DNA of 57,055 nucleotides from a virus (Duplodnaviria > Caudoviricetes): positions 1 through 57,055 of the IMG/VR virus record IMGVR_UViG_3300046048_000470; one strand, 5' to 3'. A program made the translations under genes and the position numbers. Below the pieces are notes generated by a model. The model did not search any database. It was not told the origin of the DNA and saw only the letters and a list, made by a program, of their open reading frames with translations. The stretch's first letter is position 1. Each line of letters begins with the position of its first letter. Below are positions 23,957-56,132 of the stretch, one piece after another.

Positions 23957-24063
23957 TCTTCCTCGTCACAGTTTCGGCAGACCCAATGGTCAAACCGTTC
24001 GAGCGGGCGCGAACAGATCCAGCAGGCCCCGTAGCGGAGCCTGCTGGCTAGATCAGAAGGCAT
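23953..24063 (-). CDS. Micro Zn-finger protein (36 aa)
   Basis: CWIC...CRNC; overlaps neighbours at both ends. Confidence 0.5.
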   Translation of the reverse strand: MPSDLASRLRYGACWICSRPLERFDHWVCRNCDEEE

Positions 24064-24376
24064 CGTCGGGGCGGATGTCCAGACGGGCTTCTAGCTCATT
24101 CATGAGCCGCTCACTGATCGAGTCGGCCAGGGTCACCAGGTGCTCCGGGTAGCCACGGCCTCGGGACAGCTCCAACGCCTGGAACGCACGGAGCAACGGG
24201 AGCGAGCCGAACTCGGCCAGGGCGTAGTCAGGATGATTGGGATTCTCTGGGGCGTCGTGCCGGAAACTGCGTGTCTCCCACATGAGCACGGCCTGCGCCG
24301 TCTCCGCGAGCACTCGCTCCGCTTCGGTGTCGCATGCCTCGACCAAGGGGATGAGGATCATTGGTGCTGTAGCCAT
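24053..24376 (-). CDS. Hypothetical protein
   Basis: Leaderless; starts ATGGCTAC. Confidence 0.7.
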   Translation of the reverse strand: MATAPMILIPLVEACDTEAERVLAETAQAVLMWETRSFRHDAPENPNHPDYALAEFGSLPLLRAFQALELSRGRGYPEHLVTLADSISERLMNELEARLDIRPDDAF

Positions 24377-24383
24377 GAACGGG

Positions 24384-24413
24384 ACCCTAACACCGTGTGA
24401 TGTTGGGAGGCAA
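24384..24413 (-). promoter_or_regulatory. Leaderless promoter of the conserved phage type
   Basis: TTGCCT-N18-TAGGGT-N7-ATG with TCACACGGTGT in the spacer. Confidence 0.65.
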
Positions 24414-29739: not shown

Positions 29740-30422
29740 CAGAGACCCCTTCCGGCCTTGTAGCTCTTCGAGTGAGGGCAGTCGACGAAGTGTGACAGCC
29801 AGATCGGTTGATCCGGCGCCGGCGCTTCACCATCGGCCAGGACACGAACCACGAGCCGCCCCTGGCCGTCGACATCGCCAGCACCAGCCTCGAACAAGGC
29901 AAGCTCGGTAGACGCCAGCTGGATCCTCCCGGCCTTCCCGTTGTCGTCGAACTCGGTCGGCGCCCCGGCCTCGCGGTCGCCCTGGAGCGGGATCGACTTC
30001 CCGGCTTCTGTGGTCGCCCACACCATCGGCCGGCCGCAAGCGCTGCAGGATCGGATCTTGCTGTCCATCAGTGGAATCTCTCCATGTCGGTACCCGGACA
30101 AACCCAGCTCTCGGGCCTCCGGGGTGTGGTCAGTGACGTACAGATGGCACGGGGAGCACAACCACCGCCAGGTAGCGACGTTGAGCATGAACCCGACGCC
30201 TCGGCCTTGCGCGTGGTGGCATTCCGCAGCCAAGCCAGCGCAGCCGGCCGGCAGCATCCCTTCCGCCTGGCAGCGCTCTACTGCCGCCATCGGGCGCAGC
30301 GCGGCGTAGTACCGGTCTCGGTCGCTGGTCTTCTTCGACCTCGGAGCGATCCGCTTCTTCGATCGACCCGGGCCCGCGCCCCGGGCCATCGGCTTCTTCC
30401 GCACGATCGGTGATCGTTTCAT
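29739..30422 (-). CDS. HNH-like endonuclease fused to Zn-ribbon domain
   Basis: C...C....ECHH...N...LCSPCH; C-terminal CSACGRPMVW...SHFVDC. Confidence 0.7.
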   Translation of the reverse strand: MKRSPIVRKKPMARGAGPGRSKKRIAPRSKKTSDRDRYYAALRPMAAVERCQAEGMLPAGCAGLAAECHHAQGRGVGFMLNVATWRWLCSPCHLYVTDHTPEARELGLSGYRHGEIPLMDSKIRSCSACGRPMVWATTEAGKSIPLQGDREAGAPTEFDDNGKAGRIQLASTELALFEAGAGDVDGQGRLVVRVLADGEAPAPDQPIWLSHFVDCPHSKSYKAGRGL

Positions 30423-30526
30423 CAGCGCCCGACCCCGAAAAATATAATAAGCAGGGCAGTGACGGCCACGACCACGGTCATGAAGACGACAAGAAAGACG
30501 ATCGGCTCGGCAACTTTGGGTTTCAT
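30422..30526 (-). CDS. Small membrane peptide (34 aa)
   Basis: ATGA and TGATG overlaps; single TM. Confidence 0.55.
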   Translation of the reverse strand: MKPKVAEPIVFLVVFMTVVVAVTALLIIFFGVGR

Positions 30527-31460: not shown

Positions 31461-32227
31461 GACGCCTCCGGACCGGCAGGGCCGGCCTTCCAGGCGTTGA
31501 ACTCATCACAGCGGCACAGAGGGCACGGGTAGACGCCTGAGCCGTCGCGGGCCGAGACCCAACCAGATTGGCAACGACCAGACTTGCAAGCCTTCAAGCC
31601 ACCAGGGCCAGGTTCCGGCAGACCTTCGAGTGCCTTACGGATCGCCGCCTCTCGGATCTGCCGCGCCCGCCAATTCGTGCAGCCCTCACCGCAACCCCGA
31701 GCGCCCTCGAAAGCACGCTGACGATGATCGTGTTTCGGGCGACCCAACGGCCTACCCGTATCCGGGTCGAGCACCGGGTCGACAGCTGCCAGCGACGTCG
31801 ACCGGTCATGCCGATTGATCGCCAGGCCACCTTCGAGCATCGCCCTCGCCCCAGGCGACACCTTGCCCAACTCCACCAGCACCGTGCTGTAGGCCTCCAG
31901 GAACTCACGCCGGGGCCGAGCAAACGACGTCGGCCGAACGCCACGCGGTTCCTCCGGCGCCGGCGACGGGCCGGAGCCGACAGCACGAACGTGGTCGTTC
32001 AGCGCCGCCGCGGTCGGAAACGCCCGAGGATTCTTGACCGACTTCGCCCACGACTCGAAGACGTCATCGACAATCTCGATCGGCATCCAATCGAGCGACA
32101 TCGTGCGGTTGATCAACCGGGCCGTTGTCTCGATGTCGTCATCGGTAGCGAACAGCCCAATCGATGGCTTGATATCCCGCAGCCAGTCACGAATCACCAG
32201 CCGCCGCGCTTCGAGCTTGTCACTCAT
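31457..32227 (-). CDS. Replication-associated hypothetical protein (loader-like position)
   Basis: Coupled to initiator; FPT.A.L motif; C-terminal Cys cluster. Confidence 0.6.
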   Translation of the reverse strand: MSDKLEARRLVIRDWLRDIKPSIGLFATDDDIETTARLINRTMSLDWMPIEIVDDVFESWAKSVKNPRAFPTAAALNDHVRAVGSGPSPAPEEPRGVRPTSFARPRREFLEAYSTVLVELGKVSPGARAMLEGGLAINRHDRSTSLAAVDPVLDPDTGRPLGRPKHDHRQRAFEGARGCGEGCTNWRARQIREAAIRKALEGLPEPGPGGLKACKSGRCQSGWVSARDGSGVYPCPLCRCDEFNAWKAGPAGPEAS

Positions 32228-33312
32228 CCCGCCTGCCCTTCCACCATCGCCTCGGCCGCCTCACGCGAGTGGCCTTCCTCCATCAGAAACAGAATCGCGT
32301 GCTCATGCCCCGCGACCCGCCGGCGCTCGGCCTCTTCCGCCTCCGCCCGATGCTTCGCCTCACGCCGAGCCCGGATCTCCGCAACCGCGGGATCTACCGG
32401 GGCCGCCGCACGGGCCTTCTTCGGGCCAGGCCACCAACCAGCGACCATGCTCGGACTGATCGGCCCCGCGTACTCGTCATGCTTCGAGTTGATGAACGTC
32501 GACGCGTGAGGCAACGGAGCTTCCTCGATCGGGAGCGAGTGATGCGTCGACCACCGGCGGCGAAGCTCGGCCATGCGGTCACGCCGCTCGGTGAGGATGG
32601 CGACGGTCAGGTGCTCCCGCTGCAGAGCTTTCTTCCACGCTCGCAGCGCGGTCTTCCGCGGTCCCTTGCGGACATCGTTCGGGTAGTGCTCCCACCAGTC
32701 AGCGAACAAGGCCTCAGCGCCGCGGTCTTCGGCGTCGGTTTGGTGACGTCGTTCGGCAGCTGACTCGATCCCGCCGTCTGGTGAGTCGACGACGAACAGC
32801 GTCGGATCGGCGCCCCCCGCTTGCGGGGGGTTGGGGGGTTCATTTCCTTCTTCTCTAGTTCTTCTACTTCTTAAGGGCTGAGTTTCGCCTGGTGACAGGG
32901 CCTGAGCCGTCGCGATATCGCGGCGACCCGTCGCGATATCCCCGACCTGCGTTGGCGATTTCGCGACGGCTCCGGACCCTGCTCGGCGATTTCGCGACGG
33001 CCGTTCTGGAGGGTCCGGGAGCTTGTCATGGTTGATCTCCAGGGTGACGATGCCGCCCGGCTCGCGGTCGACTATCTCCACCACGCCAGCCTCTACCAGG
33101 CGCTTGACCGCTCGGTAGACGCCGTCTTTGCTCAGCCCGGTCTTATCTGCCAGCTTCTGGTAGGTCAGCCGGCATTCGCCGAACTCGCCGCCGAAGTAAT
33201 CGATGCCGCCAACGAAGTGGATCTGCTGCAGCACGATCGCCCCAACAGGGTTGAAGTGCCGAACCAGTGTCGGCCCCACAGCTATGAACTCTTCCGGGAT
33301 CAGCGCGCTCAT
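32224..33312 (-). CDS. Replication initiator (lambda O-like organisation, N-terminal wHTH)
   Basis: TYQKLADKTGLSKDGVYRAVKRLVEAG wHTH; PPNPP linker; F..WW..YP...K..A.RAWKKA...PHASTFIN C-domain. Confidence 0.75.
   Translation of the reverse strand: MSALIPEEFIAVGPTLVRHFNPVGAIVLQQIHFVGGIDYFGGEFGECRLTYQKLADKTGLSKDGVYRAVKRLVEAGVVEIVDREPGGIVTLEINHDKLPDPPERPSRNRRAGSGAVAKSPTQVGDIATGRRDIATAQALSPGETQPLRSRRTREEGNEPPNPPQAGGADPTLFVVDSPDGGIESAAERRHQTDAEDRGAEALFADWWEHYPNDVRKGPRKTALRAWKKALQREHLTVAILTERRDRMAELRRRWSTHHSLPIEEAPLPHASTFINSKHDEYAGPISPSMVAGWWPGPKKARAAAPVDPAVAEIRARREAKHRAEAEEAERRRVAGHEHAILFLMEEGHSREAAEAMVEGQAG
32839..33000. promoter_or_regulatory. Candidate replication origin: four iterons plus AT-rich tract
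   Basis: CCGTCGCGAWATC at 32907, 32928 (+) and 32957, 32988 (inverted); pyrimidine/T-rich tract at 32839..32874. Confidence 0.65.
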
Positions 33313-33548
33313 CGCGTCAGCCAGGCGTCGACCTCGGCCTGCCACCTGCGGATAGTGGCAGGCTTGACGCCGAACCATTCCGCTGCCTCTTCCGCCGTGT
33401 GCGGAGCGTCGACGTACTGGCCGTCGACCACCTTCTGCCCGGCCGAGCCGCAGGCAATCAGCAGTGCTTTGGCTTGTGGCGAAACGCCCGGGTCGAACAG
33501 AATCAACGTCGGGTCGACCGTCGCCCCCCGGGGGGTTGATCGTTGCAT
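33309..33548 (-). CDS. Small HTH protein upstream of initiator
   Basis: TAEEAAEWFGVKPATIRRW; RBS GAAAGG. Confidence 0.7.
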   Translation of the reverse strand: MQRSTPRGATVDPTLILFDPGVSPQAKALLIACGSAGQKVVDGQYVDAPHTAEEAAEWFGVKPATIRRWQAEVDAWLTR

Positions 33549-33666
33549 TTGGTGCCTTTCTTTGTCAGTAGGCACCAGAAACGATCGGTTCGAGCGTTTC
33601 CGCCCGTTAGAATCTCTGGTGCCTGAGTTATGTTTCGTGGAGGCCTGGAAGCCTCCACAAGTTCGC

Positions 33667-33713
33667 AGTGTAGGCCCGGTCTGGTTTCTCCAGACCGGGC
33701 CTCACTCGTTTTT
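33667..33713 (+). terminator. Intrinsic terminator-like hairpin (T-run on plus strand)
   Basis: 13-bp stem aggcccggtctgg/ccagaccgggcct, extendable, followed by TTTTT. Confidence 0.65.
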
Positions 33714-34003
33714 CAGGTGGTGTCGGCCCGCAGCACCGACATCTCTAGGTCAGCGCCGAACGGGGTACGCCCGGTCACCCGGAACCGCATCGACGCCATG
33801 ATCTCGTCAACGTCTTCGCCTCGGGCAGGCATGAAATGCTCGGCCGCGTACTCTTCGAGCCAACGCCGAACCGACCGGTACCCGCCGGCCACAGTGTCCA
33901 TGTGGGGAGATTCGGCGGGCATCCCGATCCACACCTCCCGGTTGATCCGCGAAGTGAACATCGAAGCGCAGTGCTCCCACTCCCTCACCCACTGGACGGT
34001 CAC
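33713..34003 (-). CDS. Hypothetical protein
   Basis: GTGA-coupled ORF. Confidence 0.6.
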   Translation of the reverse strand: MTVQWVREWEHCASMFTSRINREVWIGMPAESPHMDTVAGGYRSVRRWLEEYAAEHFMPARGEDVDEIMASMRFRVTGRTPFGADLEMSVLRADTT

Positions 34004-34218
34004 TGCCCGGCCACTTCGCTGGCCAGTTTCGACAGCAGGTCACCAGGTGCATGGCAGCACCCGAGGCACAGACCTACAACGCCGATCGTTCGCGCTGAAC
34101 CAACAGCGACATGGCCACGAGCGGCGACACAAGGGCTGTCAGCGGCAGCGAGATCTTCCACCGTGTACCCGCCCCCGCGTTCTGGCGTGTACCCGCAGCC
34201 TGGCATCAGACCGGTCAC
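34000..34218 (-). CDS. Hypothetical protein
   Basis: GTGA-coupled ORF. Confidence 0.5.
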   Translation of the reverse strand: MTGLMPGCGYTPERGGGYTVEDLAAADSPCVAARGHVAVGSARTIGVVGLCLGCCHAPGDLLSKLASEVAGQ

Positions 34219-34814
34219 TGCTCGAACATCCCGAACTCCACCGTGAGCACGTCGCCTTCGGTGTCGGGTCGTGCCCGCTCGGCCGAGGGTGGTGGCATGA
34301 CCAAGCTCAACCGCCAGTCGTCGGAGATCATGACATTCTCAGGATTGTGTCGGTACTCCGCCAGCCCCGCGTCTCGCAGCATCGAACCGACCAACCACGC
34401 TTGAGACCACAAGCAACCAGCACGGTCGAGCAGCCGGGCCAAGGTGACGTGCTTGCCTTGAGCGTCGAGGACCGACGCCGCGACGATCACCTTCGCAGCA
34501 GAATCGAACGCGCCCCCGAACTCCACCGCAGCGACCGCTTTCTCAGCCTGTTCGACCCACCGCCGGTACCAATCCGACGAACGGGTCGACCGGTAGAAAC
34601 CGCCATCGCCGAAGTAGACGATCCCAGCCTCGACCAGCGGCCGCGACGCCATGTACACCTCGGAGCCTCCCATCCCGCTGAGCGCTTCGACATCGAGCGA
34701 TTTGATCGGCCCGTCTGACGCGACGACGACCGACGCGACGATGCCCGACGCGGGCCCGTACTCGGCGACCATTGCCGGGTCGACCTCGATCACCTGGTTA
34801 GTGTTGTGAGTCAT
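34215..34814 (-). CDS. Putative tandem winged-helix protein
   Basis: RBS GAAAGGAAA; two similar L..AG.V/A.Y segments. Confidence 0.6.
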   Translation of the reverse strand: MTHNTNQVIEVDPAMVAEYGPASGIVASVVVASDGPIKSLDVEALSGMGGSEVYMASRPLVEAGIVYFGDGGFYRSTRSSDWYRRWVEQAEKAVAAVEFGGAFDSAAKVIVAASVLDAQGKHVTLARLLDRAGCLWSQAWLVGSMLRDAGLAEYRHNPENVMISDDWRLSLVMPPPSAERARPDTEGDVLTVEFGMFEQ

Positions 34815-34888: not shown

Positions 34889-35305
34889 TCAACTGATTTT
34901 CACCGCGGGATGTTCTGCGGTCGGTTCGGAATCCGCTGACACCGGCACCGCCGGCCAGTCGACCAGCCAATCGGTAGCGCCAGCGTCTGCTTTCTGACGC
35001 CACTGCCGAGCCGTGACCCTGGCGTCAAGCGCCGACGACCGGAGATCGTCGAGATACCAATGCCCGGGGTTGAGCCCGTGAACGATCAGGTCATCGGCCA
35101 ATTCGTCGCGGAACACCGCGTCACGAATGCTGTTGTCGGCCTGGGCCGAGTAGAACGCCTGCTCTGCCTTGTCGGCAGGAACAGACGCCCTGAGCTGCTC
35201 GACCCTTCTGCGTGGAAGGATCGAGCGTGCCAGATCCACAATGGATCCGGCGGAGACAGCTGCCATGGTTGAGACAGCCAGGATGATCAGACCGAGATCG
35301 GTCAC
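34889..35305 (-). CDS. Membrane-anchored hypothetical protein
   Basis: Hydrophobic N-terminus; coupled to RuvC. Confidence 0.6.
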   Translation of the reverse strand: MTDLGLIILAVSTMAAVSAGSIVDLARSILPRRRVEQLRASVPADKAEQAFYSAQADNSIRDAVFRDELADDLIVHGLNPGHWYLDDLRSSALDARVTARQWRQKADAGATDWLVDWPAVPVSADSEPTAEHPAVKIS

Positions 35306-35874
35306 TTCGTTTGCCTTTCAGGTTGATTCGGTCGCACCGGCAGAGCGAAGTCTTTCAGCGCGGCCATGTGTGTTTTTGGTAGCCGGCCGAGCGGGTGTGG
35401 ACGACCGAGCGCTTCCATCACAAAGCAATACCCGGCCAACGCGTCGGCCTCGTCATCAGTCTGGAATGTCAGACCAGTACGGACCGCTATCGACGACACG
35501 ACCAGCGGCTTCGCCGCCGATCCGTTCCCCGTCGCGAACTTCTTGACTTTCCCGATCGGGACATGGCCACACGCCAAGCCGAGACGTCGAGCTTCCCGGA
35601 ATATGACACCGTGGACCGCGCCCAGCTGATGGGCGCGGTTCGCTTGTGCGTAGGCGGGCGATTCGACGAACACGACGGGCGGGCCGAGCCCGAGCGACCA
35701 GAGAATGTCGACAACTTCGACGAACCCCTGCTCGATCTCTTCGAGCTTCTGCCCGAAATCGTCGACCGTCTTCGCTACCCGGACCTCCCACAGCTTCCAC
35801 GGTCTCGTCTGGCCGACGATGTGGAGCTTCCGCTCCCCCGGATCGATGAACATCGCCGGCCCGAGATCGGTCAT
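35302..35874 (-). CDS. ruvC: RuvC-like Holliday junction resolvase
   Basis: IDPG, VFVE, G..HGV, VKKFATGNG.A.K, DDEADALA. Confidence 0.88.
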   Translation of the reverse strand: MTDLGPAMFIDPGERKLHIVGQTRPWKLWEVRVAKTVDDFGQKLEEIEQGFVEVVDILWSLGLGPPVVFVESPAYAQANRAHQLGAVHGVIFREARRLGLACGHVPIGKVKKFATGNGSAAKPLVVSSIAVRTGLTFQTDDEADALAGYCFVMEALGRPHPLGRLPKTHMAALKDFALPVRPNQPERQTK

Positions 35875-37049
35875 CCCGGAGCGACCTCCCCGGCCCAGAC
35901 CTTCAAGTCTCCGAAGTCCTGGACCATGGCCCGCTCGGGATTGTCTGGCACGTAACTGGCGTCACCCACCGGACCGCCAGCGAACGTATGCCACGGGAGC
36001 CACAACGAGAACCCCTCACCGAGCCCGTCGTTCATCGGCTGATCAACCCACCGGAACCCTTCGAGCATCTGGATCTGGTCCCATTCGGGATCTCCGACAA
36101 CGCGGGCCCAGACCTTGACCCAACCGTCAGCGACGCCAGGGGTGCCGTAGTCGAGCGCCACCCTGAACTCGATCGGGACAGCCGGCGCTAAAGCCCACCG
36201 GTCGAAGTAAGCGGTCGCTGTGTACCCGTCGGTGTACTCCGGGCTGTCGACCCGGGCCGGGACCACAACGCCGGCATCGTTCAACTGCCAGCCGGTCACC
36301 TCGTCAGCGTGAGGCGAACCGGTCCGCCATACCAAGGTCATCCGGTCATCGCCCGGGACATCTGGGTCGGTCCAGTTCCACAACCCAGCCCGGATCAGGC
36401 AGAACCGATTCGAGATCTGACCGCCGGCAGGGAACTCCCCGGCGTTGCCCCACACGTAATGACCGAGGGCCGGCCCTTTCGCCGTCCGCCAGCCGTCTGC
36501 TGCTGGCGTGTGGAGCTGCCGGACAAATCCGAACGTGACGGTCTTCATCCGAGGCATGAAAACGTACGGGCGGGCCTCGGCCGTTGACCCGCTCTCCGCG
36601 TGAGCTTCGTCGCTGACGACCCGGATGGCAGGCCTCCCGTCTGGCATCAGAACCGACGTCAGACGGGCCGTGCCCCTCGACCTCATTTGGCTTGGGCCAT
36701 TCCCTTCGGTCAGGGGTTGACCGGTCGGGCCGACGATCAGGTTCGCGGTCGATGGCCCGAAGTAGTCGCCTGCAGGGCAGATGTCGACGCCCGGTGCTGG
36801 CAGGTTGACCGGCCCTGAATACATCGGTGCCGGCTCCGGGCCAGCACCGCCCTCGGGGTCGAGGGCCGCGAGCAACGCCATCAGTTTGCCCTCTGCTGCT
36901 CCGCCGGAATCAGCGAGCGAAGTCAGGTGGCCTGCCATGGCGACCAGGCCGGCCGTCAGGGTGTCGTAAACCGCTCCGGCCGCCGTCAAATTCGATCGGA
37001 CCTCTTCCAGGTCCGCGAGGACCTCGTTGATTTGTTCAGCTGTCGTCAT
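35871..37049 (-). CDS. Coiled-coil plus polysaccharide-lyase (PL14)-like jelly-roll protein
   Basis: TPGVADGWVKVW, K.P.L, AGG, HTFAGG resemble PL14 motifs. Confidence 0.55.
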   Translation of the reverse strand: MTTAEQINEVLADLEEVRSNLTAAGAVYDTLTAGLVAMAGHLTSLADSGGAAEGKLMALLAALDPEGGAGPEPAPMYSGPVNLPAPGVDICPAGDYFGPSTANLIVGPTGQPLTEGNGPSQMRSRGTARLTSVLMPDGRPAIRVVSDEAHAESGSTAEARPYVFMPRMKTVTFGFVRQLHTPAADGWRTAKGPALGHYVWGNAGEFPAGGQISNRFCLIRAGLWNWTDPDVPGDDRMTLVWRTGSPHADEVTGWQLNDAGVVVPARVDSPEYTDGYTATAYFDRWALAPAVPIEFRVALDYGTPGVADGWVKVWARVVGDPEWDQIQMLEGFRWVDQPMNDGLGEGFSLWLPWHTFAGGPVGDASYVPDNPERAMVQDFGDLKVWAGEVAPG

Positions 37050-38362
37050 TTCGCTTGCTCCTCTTCACCCGTTATTTCGAGAATGTCGGCCATCAGATCC
37101 GCGGCTTCCTCAGCCCGCTCGTCCGAGATCGAGTCGATCGGCCAAAGGTCGGCCTTCGTCATCCGAACGGTCACCTTCGCGGCGTCATCCGGGCCGAGCC
37201 CGAGGAACACACGGTGCATGTCCTGCCTTGCACCTACCGGTGTCGGGTCACCAGCCAGGCCAGTTGCCTCTGTGGCGCTCTCCGACGGTTCCGGCGGGAC
37301 ATCCGGGCCAGGAGACGGCTCAGGTGCCGGGGCGGGGCCAGTGTGACGCCGTCCTCGGGTCGGGCCGGCAGCGTTGTTGGCCTTCATGTCAGCGATGACC
37401 GCCAGCTCCTTACGGGCCGCGGCCAACGCCGACGCCGACACCATCGCCGAGAGCCGACCCTTCGAGCTGTCATCAGGGTCGACCAGCCACAACGCCGACG
37501 CGCCGTCACTGTCGTCGACGGTGATCGAGGCGAGCGCGTTCTTGGCCACAACACGGAGGTTCTCCGGGAGCGCTTTGATAGCGCCGATAAGCGCGTCACG
37601 CTCCGACTTGTGTTCGGCCTCGTCTCGGAATCCGTAGCGGATATGCCACGGCTCATCCGGTTCCGCCGCCGGCCCAGCCGAAGCGGTCGATTCCCGCTGC
37701 CCGGCATCGTTGGATTCGAGATCCATCCGAGAGTCGTCAAACGGGATACACAGCAGCATCGTCAGCGCGTACTTCAGCGCGTAGCTGTAGGACGCTCCGA
37801 TGGTGTAGGCGCTCATCCCCGAGGCGTGAGAGAACACTCGGATACGGACGCTCGACGCGTCCACGGCCGACATGAGAATGACGGCCAGTTCAAGCTCCGA
37901 CACCTCTTCGCTCTTCCCGAACGCCTTCAACACGACCGGTGTCCGCTTCATCGGCGACGGGATCAGAGCAATCCGAGCGTGGACCAGAGCGGGCTGTACC
38001 GCCGAGATCACAGCGTCAGCAGACCGGTAGTTCCACTTCCCCGCCTTCGGGACGTTGTGGAGCCCGTCTTTCCCGACCGCGCCGACCGCGGCCATGGCCT
38101 CGACCATCGCCCCGACGATCGCTACCCCACCGTTCACGCCAGGCGTCAACTCCGGCTCATGGCTCCACACCTCCGGCGCCGGAGCCGCCGGCAGGTTGGC
38201 TTCCAACGCGGCCCTACTCGCGATCGCCTCGGCCAGAAGCGCGTCGGCCTGGATTGCTTTGGCCTCCAAGTCGCCGATGACACCGAGAAGCCGCAGCTCC
38301 TCATCGCTGCCCGTCACTGTTTCTTCGTCCGGTTCCCCGAACGGATGTGGTCCGTCACTCAT
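37046..38362 (-). CDS. erf: ERF-family ssDNA-annealing recombinase
   Basis: AVGKDG...NYRSADAVI.AVQPAL...SYALKYAL..LLCIP...D.E. Confidence 0.85.
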   Translation of the reverse strand: MSDGPHPFGEPDEETVTGSDEELRLLGVIGDLEAKAIQADALLAEAIASRAALEANLPAAPAPEVWSHEPELTPGVNGGVAIVGAMVEAMAAVGAVGKDGLHNVPKAGKWNYRSADAVISAVQPALVHARIALIPSPMKRTPVVLKAFGKSEEVSELELAVILMSAVDASSVRIRVFSHASGMSAYTIGASYSYALKYALTMLLCIPFDDSRMDLESNDAGQRESTASAGPAAEPDEPWHIRYGFRDEAEHKSERDALIGAIKALPENLRVVAKNALASITVDDSDGASALWLVDPDDSSKGRLSAMVSASALAAARKELAVIADMKANNAAGPTRGRRHTGPAPAPEPSPGPDVPPEPSESATEATGLAGDPTPVGARQDMHRVFLGLGPDDAAKVTVRMTKADLWPIDSISDERAEEAADLMADILEITGEEEQAK

Positions 38363-40050: not shown

Positions 40051-41538
40051 CTACCCCTTGGAGACGGGACCGGCCGCAGCCGGGACCTTGCCAGCCAGAT
40101 CGACAAGCGTGTCATCAAGGCATGTCTTCGCTCGGCTCGCCGCGACATACATCAACCGCAACTCAGCCGTTTCGACGTCGGCGCCGCGAGGGAAATCGTC
40201 GAGCAGCCGGACCGATGGCCACTCGCCACCCTTCGACTTGTGAGCGGTCGAGCAGACGACGTCAGCCTGATGGATGTTCCGTGGCTGGATCGTGTCGGCC
40301 AGCATCGCTTTCAGCTTCCGGCCGCCGTACTGGTCGACCAGGTTGACCATGACCTTGAGATCTCTGCCGCCCGGGTCGTGCTCGACGTAATCGAGGACCT
40401 GGCCCCAGTCGTCGAAGCATGCAAGCTCGGGATGGTCCGACCGGCGCCCATCGACCAGTTTCTGCGCCTCGCCAGCAAACCACTCGATCTGCCCGGTACC
40501 GCCCTGGATAGCGACCCGCTTACCGTCGTCCATCTGCCCGAGGGCCGAAGCGACAACAGCGCCATTGGTCCGCCCCAGAATGCAATCAGGGTTCGCCACG
40601 CGCTCGCCGACTGTGCCCGGCTTACCCGCACCGGTCACCTTGACGCCGGCCCCGAGCCGGTCGAGGACCAGGTTCGCCCGTTCAGCGATCTCCGGCCCGA
40701 AACGGAACGACTGGGTCAGCTGGCACCGCTGGTCAACCTTGGCTTGCGCCAAAGCGTCAACCGCGCCAGCCCACTCGTAGATGGCCTGCTGCCGGTCGCC
40801 GACGTAGATCAACTGAGCATGGCCTTGGCCCTCGACCACGGACCGCATGACATCGCTAGCGTCCTGGGCCTCGTCAAACATGATGACGTCAGCATCGATG
40901 TACGGATCTCGTTGAGACCACATCTTCAGGTAGTGGCCGTGCTCGAACCGGAACAGGCCGTCTCGCGGATCCTGCAGATCACGCCAGATCGTCTCGGCCA
41001 GGGTCAGAATCCGGGGTGCGAGCTTGTCGTGGTTCTCCCACTCGCCTGGAGCGTCTATTCCGGGCATCCGGTAGACGTGCCGGTACCCGAGCGACGGGTC
41101 AGCGGTCTGGCAGAACCGGCCAACGGTCGCGACCGCTGCGGTCGCCAACGCCGTCGGCCAGATCTCCTTCGTTTCCTCACCAAGGTCGACGATCACTGGG
41201 GTGTCGAGATCGAGCTTGAGGGCTTGAGCGAGCTGACGGGCCGACAACCGGCGGCTGTCGTTCAACCGTTGCTTGTATTCCTTGCCGACGGCCTGAAACG
41301 CCAGGCCGTGAGCGGTCGAGCAGCGAACGTTACGGGGGAAACTGCCCTTCGAGTCGTCAACGATTTTCCGGTTGAAAGCGACGTACTGGAGAGTCTTCTG
41401 CCGCATCGCTTCAGCGATGAGTCGGAGCGTGCTCGTCTTCCCCGCTCCCGCTAGCGCCTCGATAGCCATGCTGCGACCGGTCGATGCCAGGTCGACCGCA
41501 TGGGCCTGTTCGTCGGTGGGATCAAAGTCTGTAGCCAT
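40051..41538 (-). CDS. UvrD/Rep-like SF1 helicase
   Basis: PTDEQ, ALAGAGKT, DEAQD, VGD.QQAIY, LTQSFRFG, STAHKSKGGEW, YVA.SRAK. Confidence 0.92.
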   Translation of the reverse strand: MATDFDPTDEQAHAVDLASTGRSMAIEALAGAGKTSTLRLIAEAMRQKTLQYVAFNRKIVDDSKGSFPRNVRCSTAHGLAFQAVGKEYKQRLNDSRRLSARQLAQALKLDLDTPVIVDLGEETKEIWPTALATAAVATVGRFCQTADPSLGYRHVYRMPGIDAPGEWENHDKLAPRILTLAETIWRDLQDPRDGLFRFEHGHYLKMWSQRDPYIDADVIMFDEAQDASDVMRSVVEGQGHAQLIYVGDRQQAIYEWAGAVDALAQAKVDQRCQLTQSFRFGPEIAERANLVLDRLGAGVKVTGAGKPGTVGERVANPDCILGRTNGAVVASALGQMDDGKRVAIQGGTGQIEWFAGEAQKLVDGRRSDHPELACFDDWGQVLDYVEHDPGGRDLKVMVNLVDQYGGRKLKAMLADTIQPRNIHQADVVCSTAHKSKGGEWPSVRLLDDFPRGADVETAELRLMYVAASRAKTCLDDTLVDLAGKVPAAAGPVSKG

Positions 41539-41594
41539 AACCACGACCTTACACCGCGTGAACCCCAACCGGCAACCGGGGTTAACGATTTCAG
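41525..41594 (-). repeat. 70-bp stop-promoter-start element, copy 1
   Basis: Identical to 56541..56610; contains upstream TGA, TTGCCG-N18-TAAGGT and ATGGCTACAGACTT. Confidence 0.95.
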
Positions 41595-47505: not shown

Positions 47506-50500
47506 TCAGCTTCCTACTAGTTGGTTGCCAAGATCTCTGGCGACACGGTCAAGGGCATCGTCGACCTTCCGGCCGACTTCCTCGGCCAGTCTGCTCTCGT
47601 CCATCCCAGGGGCCGCGTTGATCTCGATCGGTATCGCCACATCAAGCCGGACATTCGCACGAGCTGTCAGCACATCAGCCGACCGGCCGACGGTCCCAGT
47701 CACCCCACCGTTGGCGAACACCCCGAGGATCTGACCGACCTGAGAGAACACATCGAGGGCGGGCCCGCGTTTCCCGAGCCCGAGCGGGATGTATGCCTCG
47801 CCCCCGGTTTCCGGTTCAGCAAAGAACCTCCCGACCGGTGCCGCTGAATAGATTTTCGCCTGGCCTGGCCGCTCGATAGTCGTTCCCGCCGGCAGATTGA
47901 ACCCGCCGTCAGCGAACGATCCCCACGGCCTGCCTTGCCCATCCCAGACACCGCCGTCAGCGTTCCGAGTCACAGACCTAGAGACCGTGGTCAACGTCAC
48001 CGTTTTCGAGCGGAACGACCCGAGCCGGTTGATCACGGAATTGATGACACCCGACGCCCTATCGATCGCTCGCAGCTCCGCCGTGTAAGTCCGAGCGTAG
48101 ATCGTCGCGAGCGCACGAGCAGCGTTAGTAGCCGCGATCGCCCGAGCCGGGTCAGCTGTGATCTGAGCGGTGTAGTCAGCAAATTTGTAGGCCGTCAGGA
48201 GCGCTATCAGGCCGATCCGTTCCGCCTTCGCGTTCGACGCGTCAGCGGTCAACTGAGCGGTGTAGTCATCCCCTGCGTAGGCGTCAGCCGCAGCGCCGGC
48301 CTGACCGACCTTCGCCAGAGCGCTGGTGATATCAGCGCCGACGGTCGGTATCGCCTCGATCTGGTCGATCTGGGTCAGCTCCGACCGGATCTCTGACGCG
48401 TCGGCATCGAACGGTGCCGCGTCGATCGAGGCGAGAGCATCGACTTGAGTAGAGTCGACCTCGTCAAGCAAGGCGAGCATCCGTGCCAGCTCAGCGTCAG
48501 CTGACGACGTATCGACCTCGGTGGTCGCCCTCGCTACCCGAGCGTCCCAACCGGTCATGAACGCGTCGAGGTTCTCTCGTGTCGGTCCGCTGTTGTCGTC
48601 CAGCTCGGTCAACGCCCTCGCTACCCGGCCATCCCAACCGCTTATGAACGCGTCGAGCGCTGCCCGCTCATCCGCGGTTTTGTCGACAAGGAGAGCATCG
48701 ACGATGATCTCCCGCTCGATCTTCTTCTGCTCCGACAAATACGCTTCGACGTCTGCTTTCGCCTCGGCAGCGTTGGTGATGATGTTCGCCAGAGTTGTTT
48801 CCGAGACGAGACCCTGCGCCGCTACCAAGTCGAGGATTTCCTGCCGGCTCAAACCAGCAGACGCGCCCAGGTCGAGGAGGGTCAGAACGTTGTTCGCCTG
48901 GATCGCCTGCAACTCATCCGCCGAAGCGCCAGCCGCGGCCTGAGCAACCGTCAGGTCGTACATCGACTGGGTCAGAGCAACGAAGTTCTCTCGGTTCCGT
49001 TCGGAGTCGAACGCCTCCGCCGCAGCGTTGTACGACACCTGAGCTTCAGTCAGCTGCTCCTGGATGAACGCCGCTGCAGCCCGAACGTCGTTCGCGGCCT
49101 CGATCGCTGACTGCAGTTCCGACGTCGCCCCGATCAGATCGTAGGTCGTTCGGATCTGTTCGAGCATCGTGTCGATCTGGCCTTGCGAAGCCGACTCGAC
49201 GTCGTACCAAGCTTCAGCCATCGGCGCTATCACAGAGAGCAGCTCGGCCGAGATCGCCGACAGAGCTTCGCCCCTGGCCTCCAAGTCTTCGCTGAACAGC
49301 GAAGTCAGATCAACCCCTTCCGTGATCGCAGCAAGGTTCTCGATCGACGCTGCCGACACACCGAGCAGATCTGCGTAGTCCGCGATCGTCGGGTTGCCTT
49401 CGAGAAGGTTGTCGATCGTTTCTTTCTGCACATCGTTCGACAGCTTCAGATTCTCGATGTATTCCGCTAGCACGGCCTGGACGTCGAGCAGTTCGGTCGT
49501 CGTGCCCTGCAGCAGAGCGTTGTAGTTGCCGGTCGCGTCCACGGCGCCTTCGACCGCCAACTTCGACACACCCAACTGATCGGCCAAGTACTCGATCCGT
49601 CCGGCGAACCTCGCGGCGTTGTCCTTGTCCAGCTCTTCGTTCAGCTGCTCGACCCGCTCCTGGGCGACCTTCAGATCCCTGTTCTCACCGCCGATCGAGG
49701 TAGCGCCAGCGACAACAGAGTTGAACCAACGCTCAACAAACCCGGAGCCTTCAGCGTCCCGGATCTCCGCGTTGAGTGACGCTATTTCGGCCTCGATCGA
49801 GCTGACCGCCTGAACCGTCGCCGCTGCCTTCTGTTCCGAGACGCCCTCGCTGAGCATCTTCACCAGCGACTCATTTGCTGCGCTCGCGTCTTTCTCGATC
49901 GAGCGTGCCGCCTGAGCTGCCAGCAGGAACGCCGCTCCGAGCGCGACCATCGCCGCCGTCACCGGATTGATGCCAGCGCCGAGCGTGGCCAACGAACCGC
50001 CGAGCCCCGTCGTCGAGCCACGAAGCACCCCGAGAGCGTTCCCGGACAGAGCAGCATTGACAGCCAGCTGACCGAGGCTGGTCGCCGTCGTCAACAGCGA
50101 CCCCCGGGCCAGCAACGCCAGAGCAGCCGCTGCAGCGATCACCGCGGGAGGTAGCAGGTTGATCGCACCGAACACGGTCTCGGTCACCGCCGACAATGCA
50201 GAAAGCACGATCACCAGCGCGTCGACTGCCCCACCAGCGCCAGCGAACGCACCAACGATCTGGAGGGCGCCAACAGCGAGGTTCCCGAGGAACGTCCCTA
50301 GCTGTTTCGCCGCGGGCCCGAGGATCGTCACCAACTGAGTGATCGCGTCTCGGGCCAGGTCGATACCCGAGGCGAACAGGCCGAGCGCTGGCGAACCGAT
50401 AGTGATCGCCAGCGCCGTGAATTGGTTCTTGAGAGTCGAGAGTTTCGCTGCGACGGTCTCCAACCGCTTGTTGTACTCCTCGGCCGCCTGACCGCCGACG

Positions 50501-51519
50501 GTGTAAGCGTTGCTGGCCAGAGCCAACTGTTCCCGCACAAACCCTGAGTTGAGAGCGAGGAGCCGGAGAACTTCCGATGTGCGGAGCCCATCGATCTTTA
50601 GCTCTTTCAGCACGCCAGTGATCGACTTGCCCTGACGGATCGCCTCGCCCAAGCCTTCACCGAACAGGATCAACGCCTCAACCGGATTCGTTCGAGCGAT
50701 CTCAGCAAATTCAGCTGGGAGCAGACCAGCGGTGTCTGCCAGGGTCTGCAGCTCTTTCCCGCCGTTGATCGCAGCATCAGAGATCACTGTGATGATCTTC
50801 GACAGAGCAGAACCGCCGGCCTCGGAACGGATACCCAAGCTGGAGAACGACGACGCCAACGCCAGGATCTCGTCTTCCGCGGCGCCGGCCACGGTGAACG
50901 CCGACGCCAACCGCAGCGAGAAATCGACGATCTGGCTTTCCGTCGTCGCCGAATTGTTGCCCAGCTCGACAATGACGTCGGCGACCTTGCCGATGTTTTT
51001 CGCCCCGCCTCCCGTCACGTTCAGGAACCTGGCGAGCGACTGTGACGCCTCCTCAAACGACAGATCTGTTGTTTCTCCAAGCTGAGCGATTGTCTTCGTG
51101 AACTTGATGATGTCCGGCGCCTTGACACCCAACTGTCCGGCGTTCGCCGCGATGTCAGCGAGGTCGTTCGCCGACGTCGGCATGATCGTCGACAACCCGA
51201 GCAGCTCCGACCGGATCCTCCCCAACTGCGCTGGAGTACCGTCGACCGTCTTCTTCACACCAGCGAACGCGGACTCGAACTGGATCGCCGGACGGAGGAC
51301 CGCTCCGAGCCCGGTCGCCAACAGGCCGACACCGATACCGACACCGGCCAGAACTTTCTGCCCCGTGGTCAGCGACCCGAACGCAGTGTTCATCCGCTGC
51401 AACGACTGAGTGACCCGCTTCTCGGCCGATGTGACCGACCCAGTGAACGCACCTAAGCCGCGTTGTGCCCCCGCCGCGTCGGTTTCGAGCAGGATGCGGA
51501 GCTTCAGCTGGTCGGCCAC
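47506..51519 (-). CDS. Tape measure protein
   Basis: About 1340 aa, Ala-rich; FESAFAGVKKTVDG...AGQLG...LGNN.ATTE domain; hydrophobic centre. Confidence 0.92.
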   Translation of the reverse strand: MADQLKLRILLETDAAGAQRGLGAFTGSVTSAEKRVTQSLQRMNTAFGSLTTGQKVLAGVGIGVGLLATGLGAVLRPAIQFESAFAGVKKTVDGTPAQLGRIRSELLGLSTIMPTSANDLADIAANAGQLGVKAPDIIKFTKTIAQLGETTDLSFEEASQSLARFLNVTGGGAKNIGKVADVIVELGNNSATTESQIVDFSLRLASAFTVAGAAEDEILALASSFSSLGIRSEAGGSALSKIITVISDAAINGGKELQTLADTAGLLPAEFAEIARTNPVEALILFGEGLGEAIRQGKSITGVLKELKIDGLRTSEVLRLLALNSGFVREQLALASNAYTVGGQAAEEYNKRLETVAAKLSTLKNQFTALAITIGSPALGLFASGIDLARDAITQLVTILGPAAKQLGTFLGNLAVGALQIVGAFAGAGGAVDALVIVLSALSAVTETVFGAINLLPPAVIAAAAALALLARGSLLTTATSLGQLAVNAALSGNALGVLRGSTTGLGGSLATLGAGINPVTAAMVALGAAFLLAAQAARSIEKDASAANESLVKMLSEGVSEQKAAATVQAVSSIEAEIASLNAEIRDAEGSGFVERWFNSVVAGATSIGGENRDLKVAQERVEQLNEELDKDNAARFAGRIEYLADQLGVSKLAVEGAVDATGNYNALLQGTTTELLDVQAVLAEYIENLKLSNDVQKETIDNLLEGNPTIADYADLLGVSAASIENLAAITEGVDLTSLFSEDLEARGEALSAISAELLSVIAPMAEAWYDVESASQGQIDTMLEQIRTTYDLIGATSELQSAIEAANDVRAAAAFIQEQLTEAQVSYNAAAEAFDSERNRENFVALTQSMYDLTVAQAAAGASADELQAIQANNVLTLLDLGASAGLSRQEILDLVAAQGLVSETTLANIITNAAEAKADVEAYLSEQKKIEREIIVDALLVDKTADERAALDAFISGWDGRVARALTELDDNSGPTRENLDAFMTGWDARVARATTEVDTSSADAELARMLALLDEVDSTQVDALASIDAAPFDADASEIRSELTQIDQIEAIPTVGADITSALAKVGQAGAAADAYAGDDYTAQLTADASNAKAERIGLIALLTAYKFADYTAQITADPARAIAATNAARALATIYARTYTAELRAIDRASGVINSVINRLGSFRSKTVTLTTVSRSVTRNADGGVWDGQGRPWGSFADGGFNLPAGTTIERPGQAKIYSAAPVGRFFAEPETGGEAYIPLGLGKRGPALDVFSQVGQILGVFANGGVTGTVGRSADVLTARANVRLDVAIPIEINAAPGMDESRLAEEVGRKVDDALDRVARDLGNQLVGS

Positions 51520-51570
51520 GCCCCATAGTGCCCCCACGGCGCCCCCCCAGGGCCGTGGTGCGCACCCTAG

Positions 51571-56106: not shown

Positions 56107-56132
56107 CCCCTACCGGCCCGAACCGGTAGGGG
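56107..56132 (-). terminator. Hairpin after gene 56147..56554
   Basis: 10-bp stem cccctaccgg/ccggtagggg. Confidence 0.5.

Follow-up and report, generated by a model that had tools for sequence, protein, structure and literature searches.

The window analysed here, that is, the whole stretch of 57,055 nucleotides, is a complete 57,055-bp virus genome from IMG/VR with direct terminal repeats and a G+C content of 64%, and the minus strand of this 57-kb genome carries nearly all of its genes. The major capsid protein matched 129 phage records, and the matched phages are those of Streptomyces, Gordonia, Arthrobacter, and Mycobacterium. Because all 129 records show <60% identity to the capsid protein, with a maximum of 30.2%, the phage is classified from its sequence as an uncultured singleton of actinobacterial type. 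The minus strand carries a tape measure gene (47506-51537) followed by minor tail genes, a DNA helicase gene (40051-41568), a gene for an Erf-like annealing protein (37046-38362), and a gene for a RuvC-like resolvase (35302-35874). In minus-strand order, the RuvC-like gene is followed by three unknown genes ending at 33713, a 164-nt spacer, a gene for a helix-turn-helix (HTH) protein, and a replication-initiator-like gene; past the latter come unknown genes and the genes for an HNH protein, a WhiB-like protein, and the large terminase. Judging from this gene order, the spacer lies inside a DNA-metabolism block and not at a late/early boundary.

The last gene upstream of the spacer (33713-34003, minus strand; stop codon TGA at 33715-33713; GC3 of 0.83) encodes a protein of 96 aa assigned to no family, and searches of Pfam and PHROG with it returned no match. 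The gene downstream of the spacer (33309-33548, minus strand) encodes the HTH protein of 79 aa, which shows weak similarity to HTH_28 (E = 0.001) and phrog_2474 (E = 3.4e-4). A word-index search with this protein found itself alone and no relative was found in the PDB, so that it is an orphan in the databases searched. The following gene (32224-33312, minus strand) encodes a protein of 362 aa that matches phrog_270 (E = 1.4e-16), the O-like phrog_678 (E = 1.7e-8), and the winged HTH_24 domain (E = 2.8e-7), in addition to phrog_391 and phrog_345, and its start is supported by alignment.

The initiator-like gene also contains a cluster of iteron-like repeats at 32908-32999, found on both strands, in which the 12-mer CGTCGCGAWATC occurs in four exact copies and one copy with one mismatch. 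Seven matches to CGTCGCGAWATC were counted in the genome, a number reached by none of 100 shuffles. The cluster is located in the linker that follows the winged-helix domain, where it encodes a short repeated peptide. The PHROG matches and the internal iterons together identify the gene, at the level of sequence, as a replication initiator, and the cluster at 32908-32999 is probably a lambda O-like origin of replication. The ATG of the initiator gene overlaps the stop codon of the HTH gene in the tetranucleotide ATGA (33312-33309), and no Shine-Dalgarno sequence precedes it. Because of this overlap and the missing Shine-Dalgarno sequence, translation of the initiator should follow that of the HTH gene. 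The original prediction had described the HTH gene as translationally coupled to the initiator; the gene order and the ATGA overlap are as described, and we infer the coupling itself from them.

The spacer measures exactly 164 nt from the stop codon of the gene at 33713-34003 to the ATG at 33548, and its G+C content is 55%. When both strands of the spacer were read, every coordinate in the list of elements given by the original prediction proved right. The complete spacer folds with an energy of -87.2 kcal/mol (z = -9.9), and none of 200 shuffled sequences folded as well. What sequence and calculation establish is the set of elements, their non-random character, their calculated energies, and the identities of the genes predicted around them.

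On the plus strand, a -10-like hexamer TAGAAT (33608-33613) points against the genes. TAGAAT occurs a single time on both strands of the 57-kb genome, and this occurrence lies in non-coding DNA. Hexamers of the form TANNNT are rare genome-wide (plus strand, 49; minus strand, 66). The spacer contains three of them: two on the plus strand, TAGAAT and TATGTT, and one, TACACT, on the other strand. A two-hexamer sigma-70 promoter scan reported nothing in the region of TAGAAT, and the -35 region is poor. The hexamer that had been called a strong -10 is present and unique in the genome, and it is a candidate promoter element. Elsewhere in the genome, the related hexamer TAGGGT was found five times on the minus strand (24389, 13721, 19895, 51569, and 55429) and zero times on the plus strand. 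The TAGGGT at 24389 (minus strand) is preceded by TGT and, at a distance of 18 nt, by a TTGCCT box, and an ATG follows it after 7 nt; it resembles a host-type promoter from which the gene at 24053-24376 would be transcribed as a leaderless mRNA, and the phage seems to use host-type promoters, as far as such motifs can indicate. The only TATAAT of the genome (30443, plus strand) was considered as a second backward promoter and rejected, since it lies within the codons of a small hydrophobic frame and owes its letters to the Leu-Ile-Ile-Phe codons on the opposite strand. This frame (30422-30526, minus strand) occupies the interval separating two genes and would encode ~34 aa when read from its ATG at 30526.

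Downstream of TAGAAT on the plus strand are two hairpins, both present where they had been located before. Hairpin 1 (33637-33658) can form on both strands, with 8 bp on the plus strand (-15.9 kcal/mol) and, counting G-U, 11 pairs on the minus strand (-18.7 kcal/mol). Hairpin 2 together with its T5 run occupies 33665-33713 on the plus strand; it has a perfect core of 13 bp (33672-33702) and 19 pairs when extended (33665-33708), its folding energy is -35.8 kcal/mol, and the T5 run (33709-33713) directly abuts the extended stem. On the minus strand, hairpin 2 is preceded by A5 and followed by no U-tract, and hairpin 1 likewise has no U-run. At the sequence level, hairpin 2 with its T5 run is therefore of the canonical form predicted for an intrinsic terminator of the plus strand. 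Among 38 terminator-like sites counted genome-wide (the shuffle means sum to ~30), the hairpin at 33672-33702 is the strongest, with 13 pairs of which 10 are G-C, followed by a runner-up with 9 pairs and 7 G-C. Among perfect stems it is second only to the hairpin at 2121-2156. Moreover, the plus strand of the 57-kb genome contains nine T5 and six A5 runs, and because such runs are rare, the T5 next to hairpin 2 is unlikely to be accidental.

Because TAGAAT lies ~100 nt before hairpin 2, the two elements would delimit a candidate antisense RNA of ~94 nt, running from ~33620 to 33713 on the plus strand with a predicted start at ~33619-33621. This 94-nt RNA is predicted to fold into two hairpins with an energy of -51.8 kcal/mol (z = -6.8), preceded by an unstructured 5' tail of 17 nt (33620-33636). 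We infer, from the arrangement of these signals, that both this RNA and the opposing leader would be made. A search of the whole window against Rfam returned no family at threshold and no match to CopA, and a tRNA search found none. The best Rfam match in the region was the countertranscript family RF00236 (ctRNA_pGA1) at 33657-33718 on the plus strand, which scored 20.7 bits against a gathering score of 45; membership was rejected, as the score is below threshold and just the generic terminator hairpin and U-run align. A separate stretch of 18 nt near the 3' end of the upstream gene (33759-33776) is 78% complementary to one arm of hairpin 2 (33693-33710); this partial complement is far weaker than hairpin 2 and may be due to chance.

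The same hairpins may instead serve the sense strand. They begin 4 nt past the stop codon of the same-strand gene at 33713-34003, hairpin 1 is more stable on the minus than on the plus strand, and strong hairpins without T-runs are also found near other gene ends (2121-2156 and 56107-56132). In addition, a distant homologue of the initiator, on contig L003, is also preceded by a long hairpin before its ribosome site, with a U-run on the sense strand. Accordingly, the hairpins could terminate transcripts of the same-strand genes upstream (those for the helicase, the Erf-like and RuvC-like proteins, and others) or stabilise their 3' ends; the leader would then be a passive or constitutive damper of HTH translation, TAGAAT and T5 would be incidental, and an antisense RNA would play no part. 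However, a U-tract follows neither hairpin on the minus strand, whereas on the plus strand the rare T5 run lies directly against the stem. The uniqueness of TAGAAT in the genome also argues against this explanation, which we consider somewhat unlikely but a serious rival.

The minus-strand leader of the HTH gene contains three segments that can pair in two ways. Segment C (33624-33613) can pair with segment B (33581-33570; 33586-33570 when extended) in a helix of 12 bp, comprising 11 Watson-Crick pairs and one G-U, and this helix encloses a 6-bp hairpin with a GAAA loop (33606-33591) that is present in both folds; in the C:B fold the ribosome site is open. Alternatively, segment B can pair with segment A (33557-33550), which lies in the translation start region of the HTH gene, through 8 bp. 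Both helices agree with those proposed earlier, and the B:A helix is longer than had been noted, since 7 more pairs form between 33586-33580 and 33544-33538, giving 8+7 bp around the AUG. The start region as a whole (33538-33561) thus comprises the Shine-Dalgarno sequence AGAAAGG (33561-33555), the ATG (33548-33546), and the second partner of B within the first codons (33544-33538). The closed form is an 8+7-bp hairpin (-21.4 kcal/mol) with a 2x5 internal loop, which holds the AUG, and an apical loop, which takes in the A-rich half of the Shine-Dalgarno sequence; the presence of both in loops speaks against the switch considered below. When the leader is open, the TAGAAT positions sit in an internal loop.

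The relative stability of the two folds was calculated for the leader at 33636-33530. The open (C:B) fold has an energy of -32.5 kcal/mol and the closed (B:A) fold one of -32.8 kcal/mol, and the probabilities of the core helices are 0.485 for C:B and 0.515 for B:A. The two folds are mutually exclusive and, in the folding model, nearly isoenergetic. When the chain was grown from its 5' end, C:B formed as soon as B was made and was the minimum-energy fold until codons 2-4 were transcribed. With segment C present, the GG of the Shine-Dalgarno sequence and the spacer to the start codon have a mean unpaired probability of 0.65-0.69 versus 0.12-0.13 with C removed or masked, the low value being that of a leader whose 5' end lies at or below 33618 or in which C is masked. 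The sole TANNNT hexamer on the minus strand of the spacer, the TACACT at 33672-33667, is the only evident sign of a sense promoter and lies within hairpin 2; the sense leader would include segment C.

Structured ribosome sites are common in this genome. Among 63 gene starts, the HTH gene ranks 32 for ribosome-site accessibility and 12 for local minimum free energy, and occlusion of the ribosome site is thus ordinary for a genome so rich in G+C. This finding is consistent with a leader that acts as the passive damper of the sense-terminator explanation. That explanation, however, accounts neither for the near-equal energies of the two folds nor for the third copy of a motif that the leader contains.

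Segments A, B, and C each carry or complement this motif, AGGCACCA. Four copies of AGGCACCA are present in the window, and three of them, two direct and one inverted, fall within a 75-nt part of the spacer. Among 20,000 dinucleotide shuffles of 33530-33636, three copies of an 8-mer arose 25 times, and two direct copies plus an inverted one arose twice; the observed pattern is beyond chance. Genome-wide, the 10-mer with at most one mismatch was found at five sites, three of which are in the spacer, and with at most two mismatches at 57 sites versus 50 expected, which is the chance level. The motif is not a palindrome, and its copies, which differ in orientation, are spaced by 20 and 45 bp. A dispersed stoperator-like site was rejected because the motif is local. 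The motif was also rejected as a set of iterons for the initiator, whose gene holds a different repeated 12-mer, and a small transposable insert between the direct copies was rejected because no terminal inverted repeats were seen on reading the sequence.

Chance was nevertheless considered for the spacer as a whole: in a GC-rich stretch, the repeat and the AT-rich hexamer would both be accidents, and there would be no dedicated function. The case is one of a single sequence, and 57 kb was screened for anything notable, so that the nominal p-values are inflated; moreover, TANNNT hexamers are enriched on both strands of this 55% GC spacer (three in 164 nt). The frequency of the motif triple among the shuffles (2/20,000) and the z value of the fold (-9.9) stand against such an accident, as does the occurrence of a unique TAGAAT and a rare T5 on one strand in the right order and spacing. 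We therefore regard an absence of dedicated function as highly doubtful.

Alternatively, a protein may bind the DNA of the AGGCACCA copies, in which case the RNA folds would be a by-product. The most likely candidate is the HTH protein, which would then be an autoregulator similar to CopG or CopB. It would repress the operon or, as the predicted antisense start falls within copy C, the backward promoter. The HTH gene indeed heads the operon, the motif is local and not dispersed, and in R1 and pMV158 rep is as a rule cotranscribed with a small repressor gene, according to the sections of the source available (PMC5717011). On the other hand, a motif that is no palindrome, with copies of both orientations spaced by 20 and 45 bp, speaks against such an operator, the HTH protein has no characterised relative, and the probable sites of the initiator are a different 12-mer within its own gene. 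Furthermore, the complementarity runs 7 bp past the motif with unequal gaps of 2 and 5 nt, an arrangement suited to an internal loop of RNA and not to a symmetric operator. Given the extension of B:A outside the motif and the asymmetric spacing, an RNA helix fits better than a protein site, and operator function of the motif appears distinctly unlikely.

If the leader is an RNA switch, the candidate antisense RNA could act on it through its 5' tail. The 17 nt of the tail correspond to the unpaired linker of the sense leader, most of the tail positions are predicted to be unpaired in both RNAs, and the duplex between tail and target has an energy of -26.9 kcal/mol. The tail covers at 33620-33624 the first 5 nt of segment C. 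The original prediction had outlined a counter-transcript of ~90 nt overlapping C; a unit of ~94 nt is indeed outlined by the predicted signals, but its overlap with C amounts to just 4-6 nt, depending on the start. When the leader and the antisense RNA were co-folded computationally, the remaining leader adopted the closed form. Refolding is the least secure part of the proposal.

Taken together, these data suggest that the 164-nt spacer may be a composite control region of the HTH-initiator operon. During transcription, segment C would pair first with B and leave the ribosome site open; once the first codons have been made, B could switch to the ribosome-site spacer and codons 2-4 at about equal energy. 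A convergent plus-strand unit, with TAGAAT as its -10, a start near 33620, two hairpins, and a U-tract ending at 33713, would yield the antisense RNA of ~94 nt, whose free 5' tail would pair with the unpaired linker and invade the 5' end of C. Invasion of C would tip the leader to the closed fold and lower translation of the HTH gene, and with it translation of the initiator through the ATGA overlap. Convergent transcription or cleavage of the duplex, as with lambda pO/oop, may supplement or replace refolding. This reading, a bistable leader with a backward antisense unit that damps HTH-initiator expression, is predicted from one sequence; it is the most likely of the readings considered, and we put it forward tentatively, as possible rather than probable. 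The interpretation given in the original prediction is partly supported, being coherent in silico.

Relatives of the locus were sought in several collections. A blastn search of 32200-34300 against GenBank phages gave no match, a tblastn search of the initiator against phages gave none, and a word-index search with the initiator found itself alone. Peptide-pattern scans for relatives of the initiator found none in viral contigs or genome contigs. By contrast with these searches, a HMMER search with the initiator returned 65 proteins at E <= 1e-3, the closest being P0002 (43% identity, on a 51.9-kb contig) and P0003 (35% identity, on a 13.8-kb contig), and peptide scans from these two best homologues found no relative. 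The RuvC-like protein and the large terminase used as queries also found none, and the inverted repeat formed by C and B had 0 matches in viral contigs. The sequence was located in one DNA run, possibly that of the source sample, and in no RNA run; the contigs of the DNA run at 80% likeness were six short unrelated pieces, none of them over the spacer. None of the searches of phage, viral-contig, genome, and metagenome collections yielded a relative whose leader is comparable to the spacer.

A metagenome scan for the initiator returned just two contigs, L003 and L004, which share one and the same sequence upstream of the gene and show 36% identity to the initiator over 77 residues; because this match is too distant, their leaders could not be aligned with the spacer. 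At 2780-3000 of L003, a distant phage contig of lower G+C (the same in L004), an extended -10-like box and a long hairpin precede the initiator homologue. The hairpin directly precedes the ribosome site and is flanked by an A-run and a U-run, with a folding energy of -64.6 kcal/mol (z = -4.2). Structured, terminator-like leaders may therefore be common before this kind of initiator gene.

The original prediction had also placed the control region in an integrase-less phage with plasmid-style control. Six-frame searches of the genome found no tyrosine or serine integrase (PF00589, PF00239, and PF07508), so that the phage is integrase-less as far as the models can see; the same kind of search found no ParB or ParA (PF02195 and PF13614), and the plasmid state assumed for the phage is thus not borne out. 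The only convincing plus-strand gene (824-2107, 427 aa) encodes a repressor-type HTH at residues ~253-323, and this gene may be an immunity-type repressor despite the fact that integrase and partition genes were not found. The longest perfect hairpin of the genome (14 bp, 2121-2156, without T-run) lies 3' of this repressor-like gene. A plasmid lifestyle of the phage is unsupported, and because nothing indicates plasmid maintenance, the label of copy-number control is unwarranted; to account for the design, it suffices to assume that initiator synthesis is held back during infection. It seems unlikely that the full version holds, in which the countertranscript flips the leader, closes the ribosome site of the HTH gene, and by coupling shuts off the initiator as a plasmid-type brake, in a phage that has neither integrase nor partition genes and possibly has a plasmid-like carrier state.

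Among phage systems, the closest analogue of the proposed antisense unit appears to be lambda pO/oop, which resembles it at least as closely as the countertranscripts of plasmids do. In lambda, pO directs a short terminated transcript against pR, just upstream of the O gene that contains ori; the oop RNA overlaps cII at its 3' end and affects it by way of RNase III, and the action of pO on replication, in the part of the source available, is by convergent transcription with no leader refolding (PMC3985674). As in lambda, a backward terminated unit is predicted here upstream of an O-like initiator gene with internal origin-like iterons. Unlike in lambda, the HTH gene intervenes between the spacer unit and the initiator, and there is no overlap with a coding 3' end: the T-run goes no further than 33713, where the upstream stop codon has its last base, and the candidate RNA would overlap the untranslated spacer alone. 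The candidate unit would also face a bistable ribosome-site leader, shows no sequence similarity to the lambda unit, and belongs to a phage whose host phylum differs.

Plasmids offer a second comparison. In the copB-tap-repA region of R1, a small regulator gene is cotranscribed with rep, translation of rep is coupled to an upstream frame, and the leader-encoded antisense RNA CopA blocks translation of that frame, as outlined in the available part of the source (PMC5717011). In pMV158, the copG-repB repressor-rep operon is accompanied by the antisense RNAII, whose complementary target is the copG-repB junction and which directly masks the start of repB, and the single-stranded 5' tail of RNAII is important for target binding, as given in the portions available of two sources (PMC5717011, PMC4485353). 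The present locus resembles R1 and pMV158 in the small regulator gene that would be cotranscribed with rep, in the translational coupling predicted, and in the candidate antisense RNA in the leader; at the sequence level it also has the intrinsic terminator that ends an antisense RNA of 50-150 nt in systems of this type, and its free 17-nt 5' tail recalls that of RNAII. It differs from R1 in that the coupled upstream frame is the 79-aa HTH gene and not a short leader peptide, in that the candidate RNA lies upstream of the ribosome site, would act via an alternative helix, and has no match to the Rfam CopA family, and in that the element is a phage without sign of a plasmid state. It differs from pMV158, a rolling-circle plasmid of Firmicutes, in that the candidate RNA lies upstream of the first gene. 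The ctRNA_pGA1 family, of which the spacer unit is not a member, is the countertranscript of a Corynebacterium plasmid.

The mycobacteriophages with extrachromosomal prophages offer a further comparison. These phages have RepA-based or RNA-based origins with parABS in place of an integration cassette, and the non-coding RNA described in the accessible part of the source is proposed as an initiator RNA and not as an antisense brake on a rep leader (PMC7157519). The present phage is likewise an integrase-less phage of actinobacterial type in need of replication and copy control; unlike them, it has no ParA or ParB among the genes found. In a limited literature search, partly swamped by unrelated papers, no actinobacteriophage was found in which a countertranscript controls a rep leader. 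If the proposal is correct, antisense-RNA brakes on initiators would also operate in uncultured phages of high-GC bacteria, and the spacer would provide a compact and portable RNA switch of ~165 nt for tuning expression in actinobacteria; the understanding of replication control would be unchanged even then. Antisense control of initiators is of a familiar kind, classic in plasmids and in lambda, and the spacer described here is a plausible further case.
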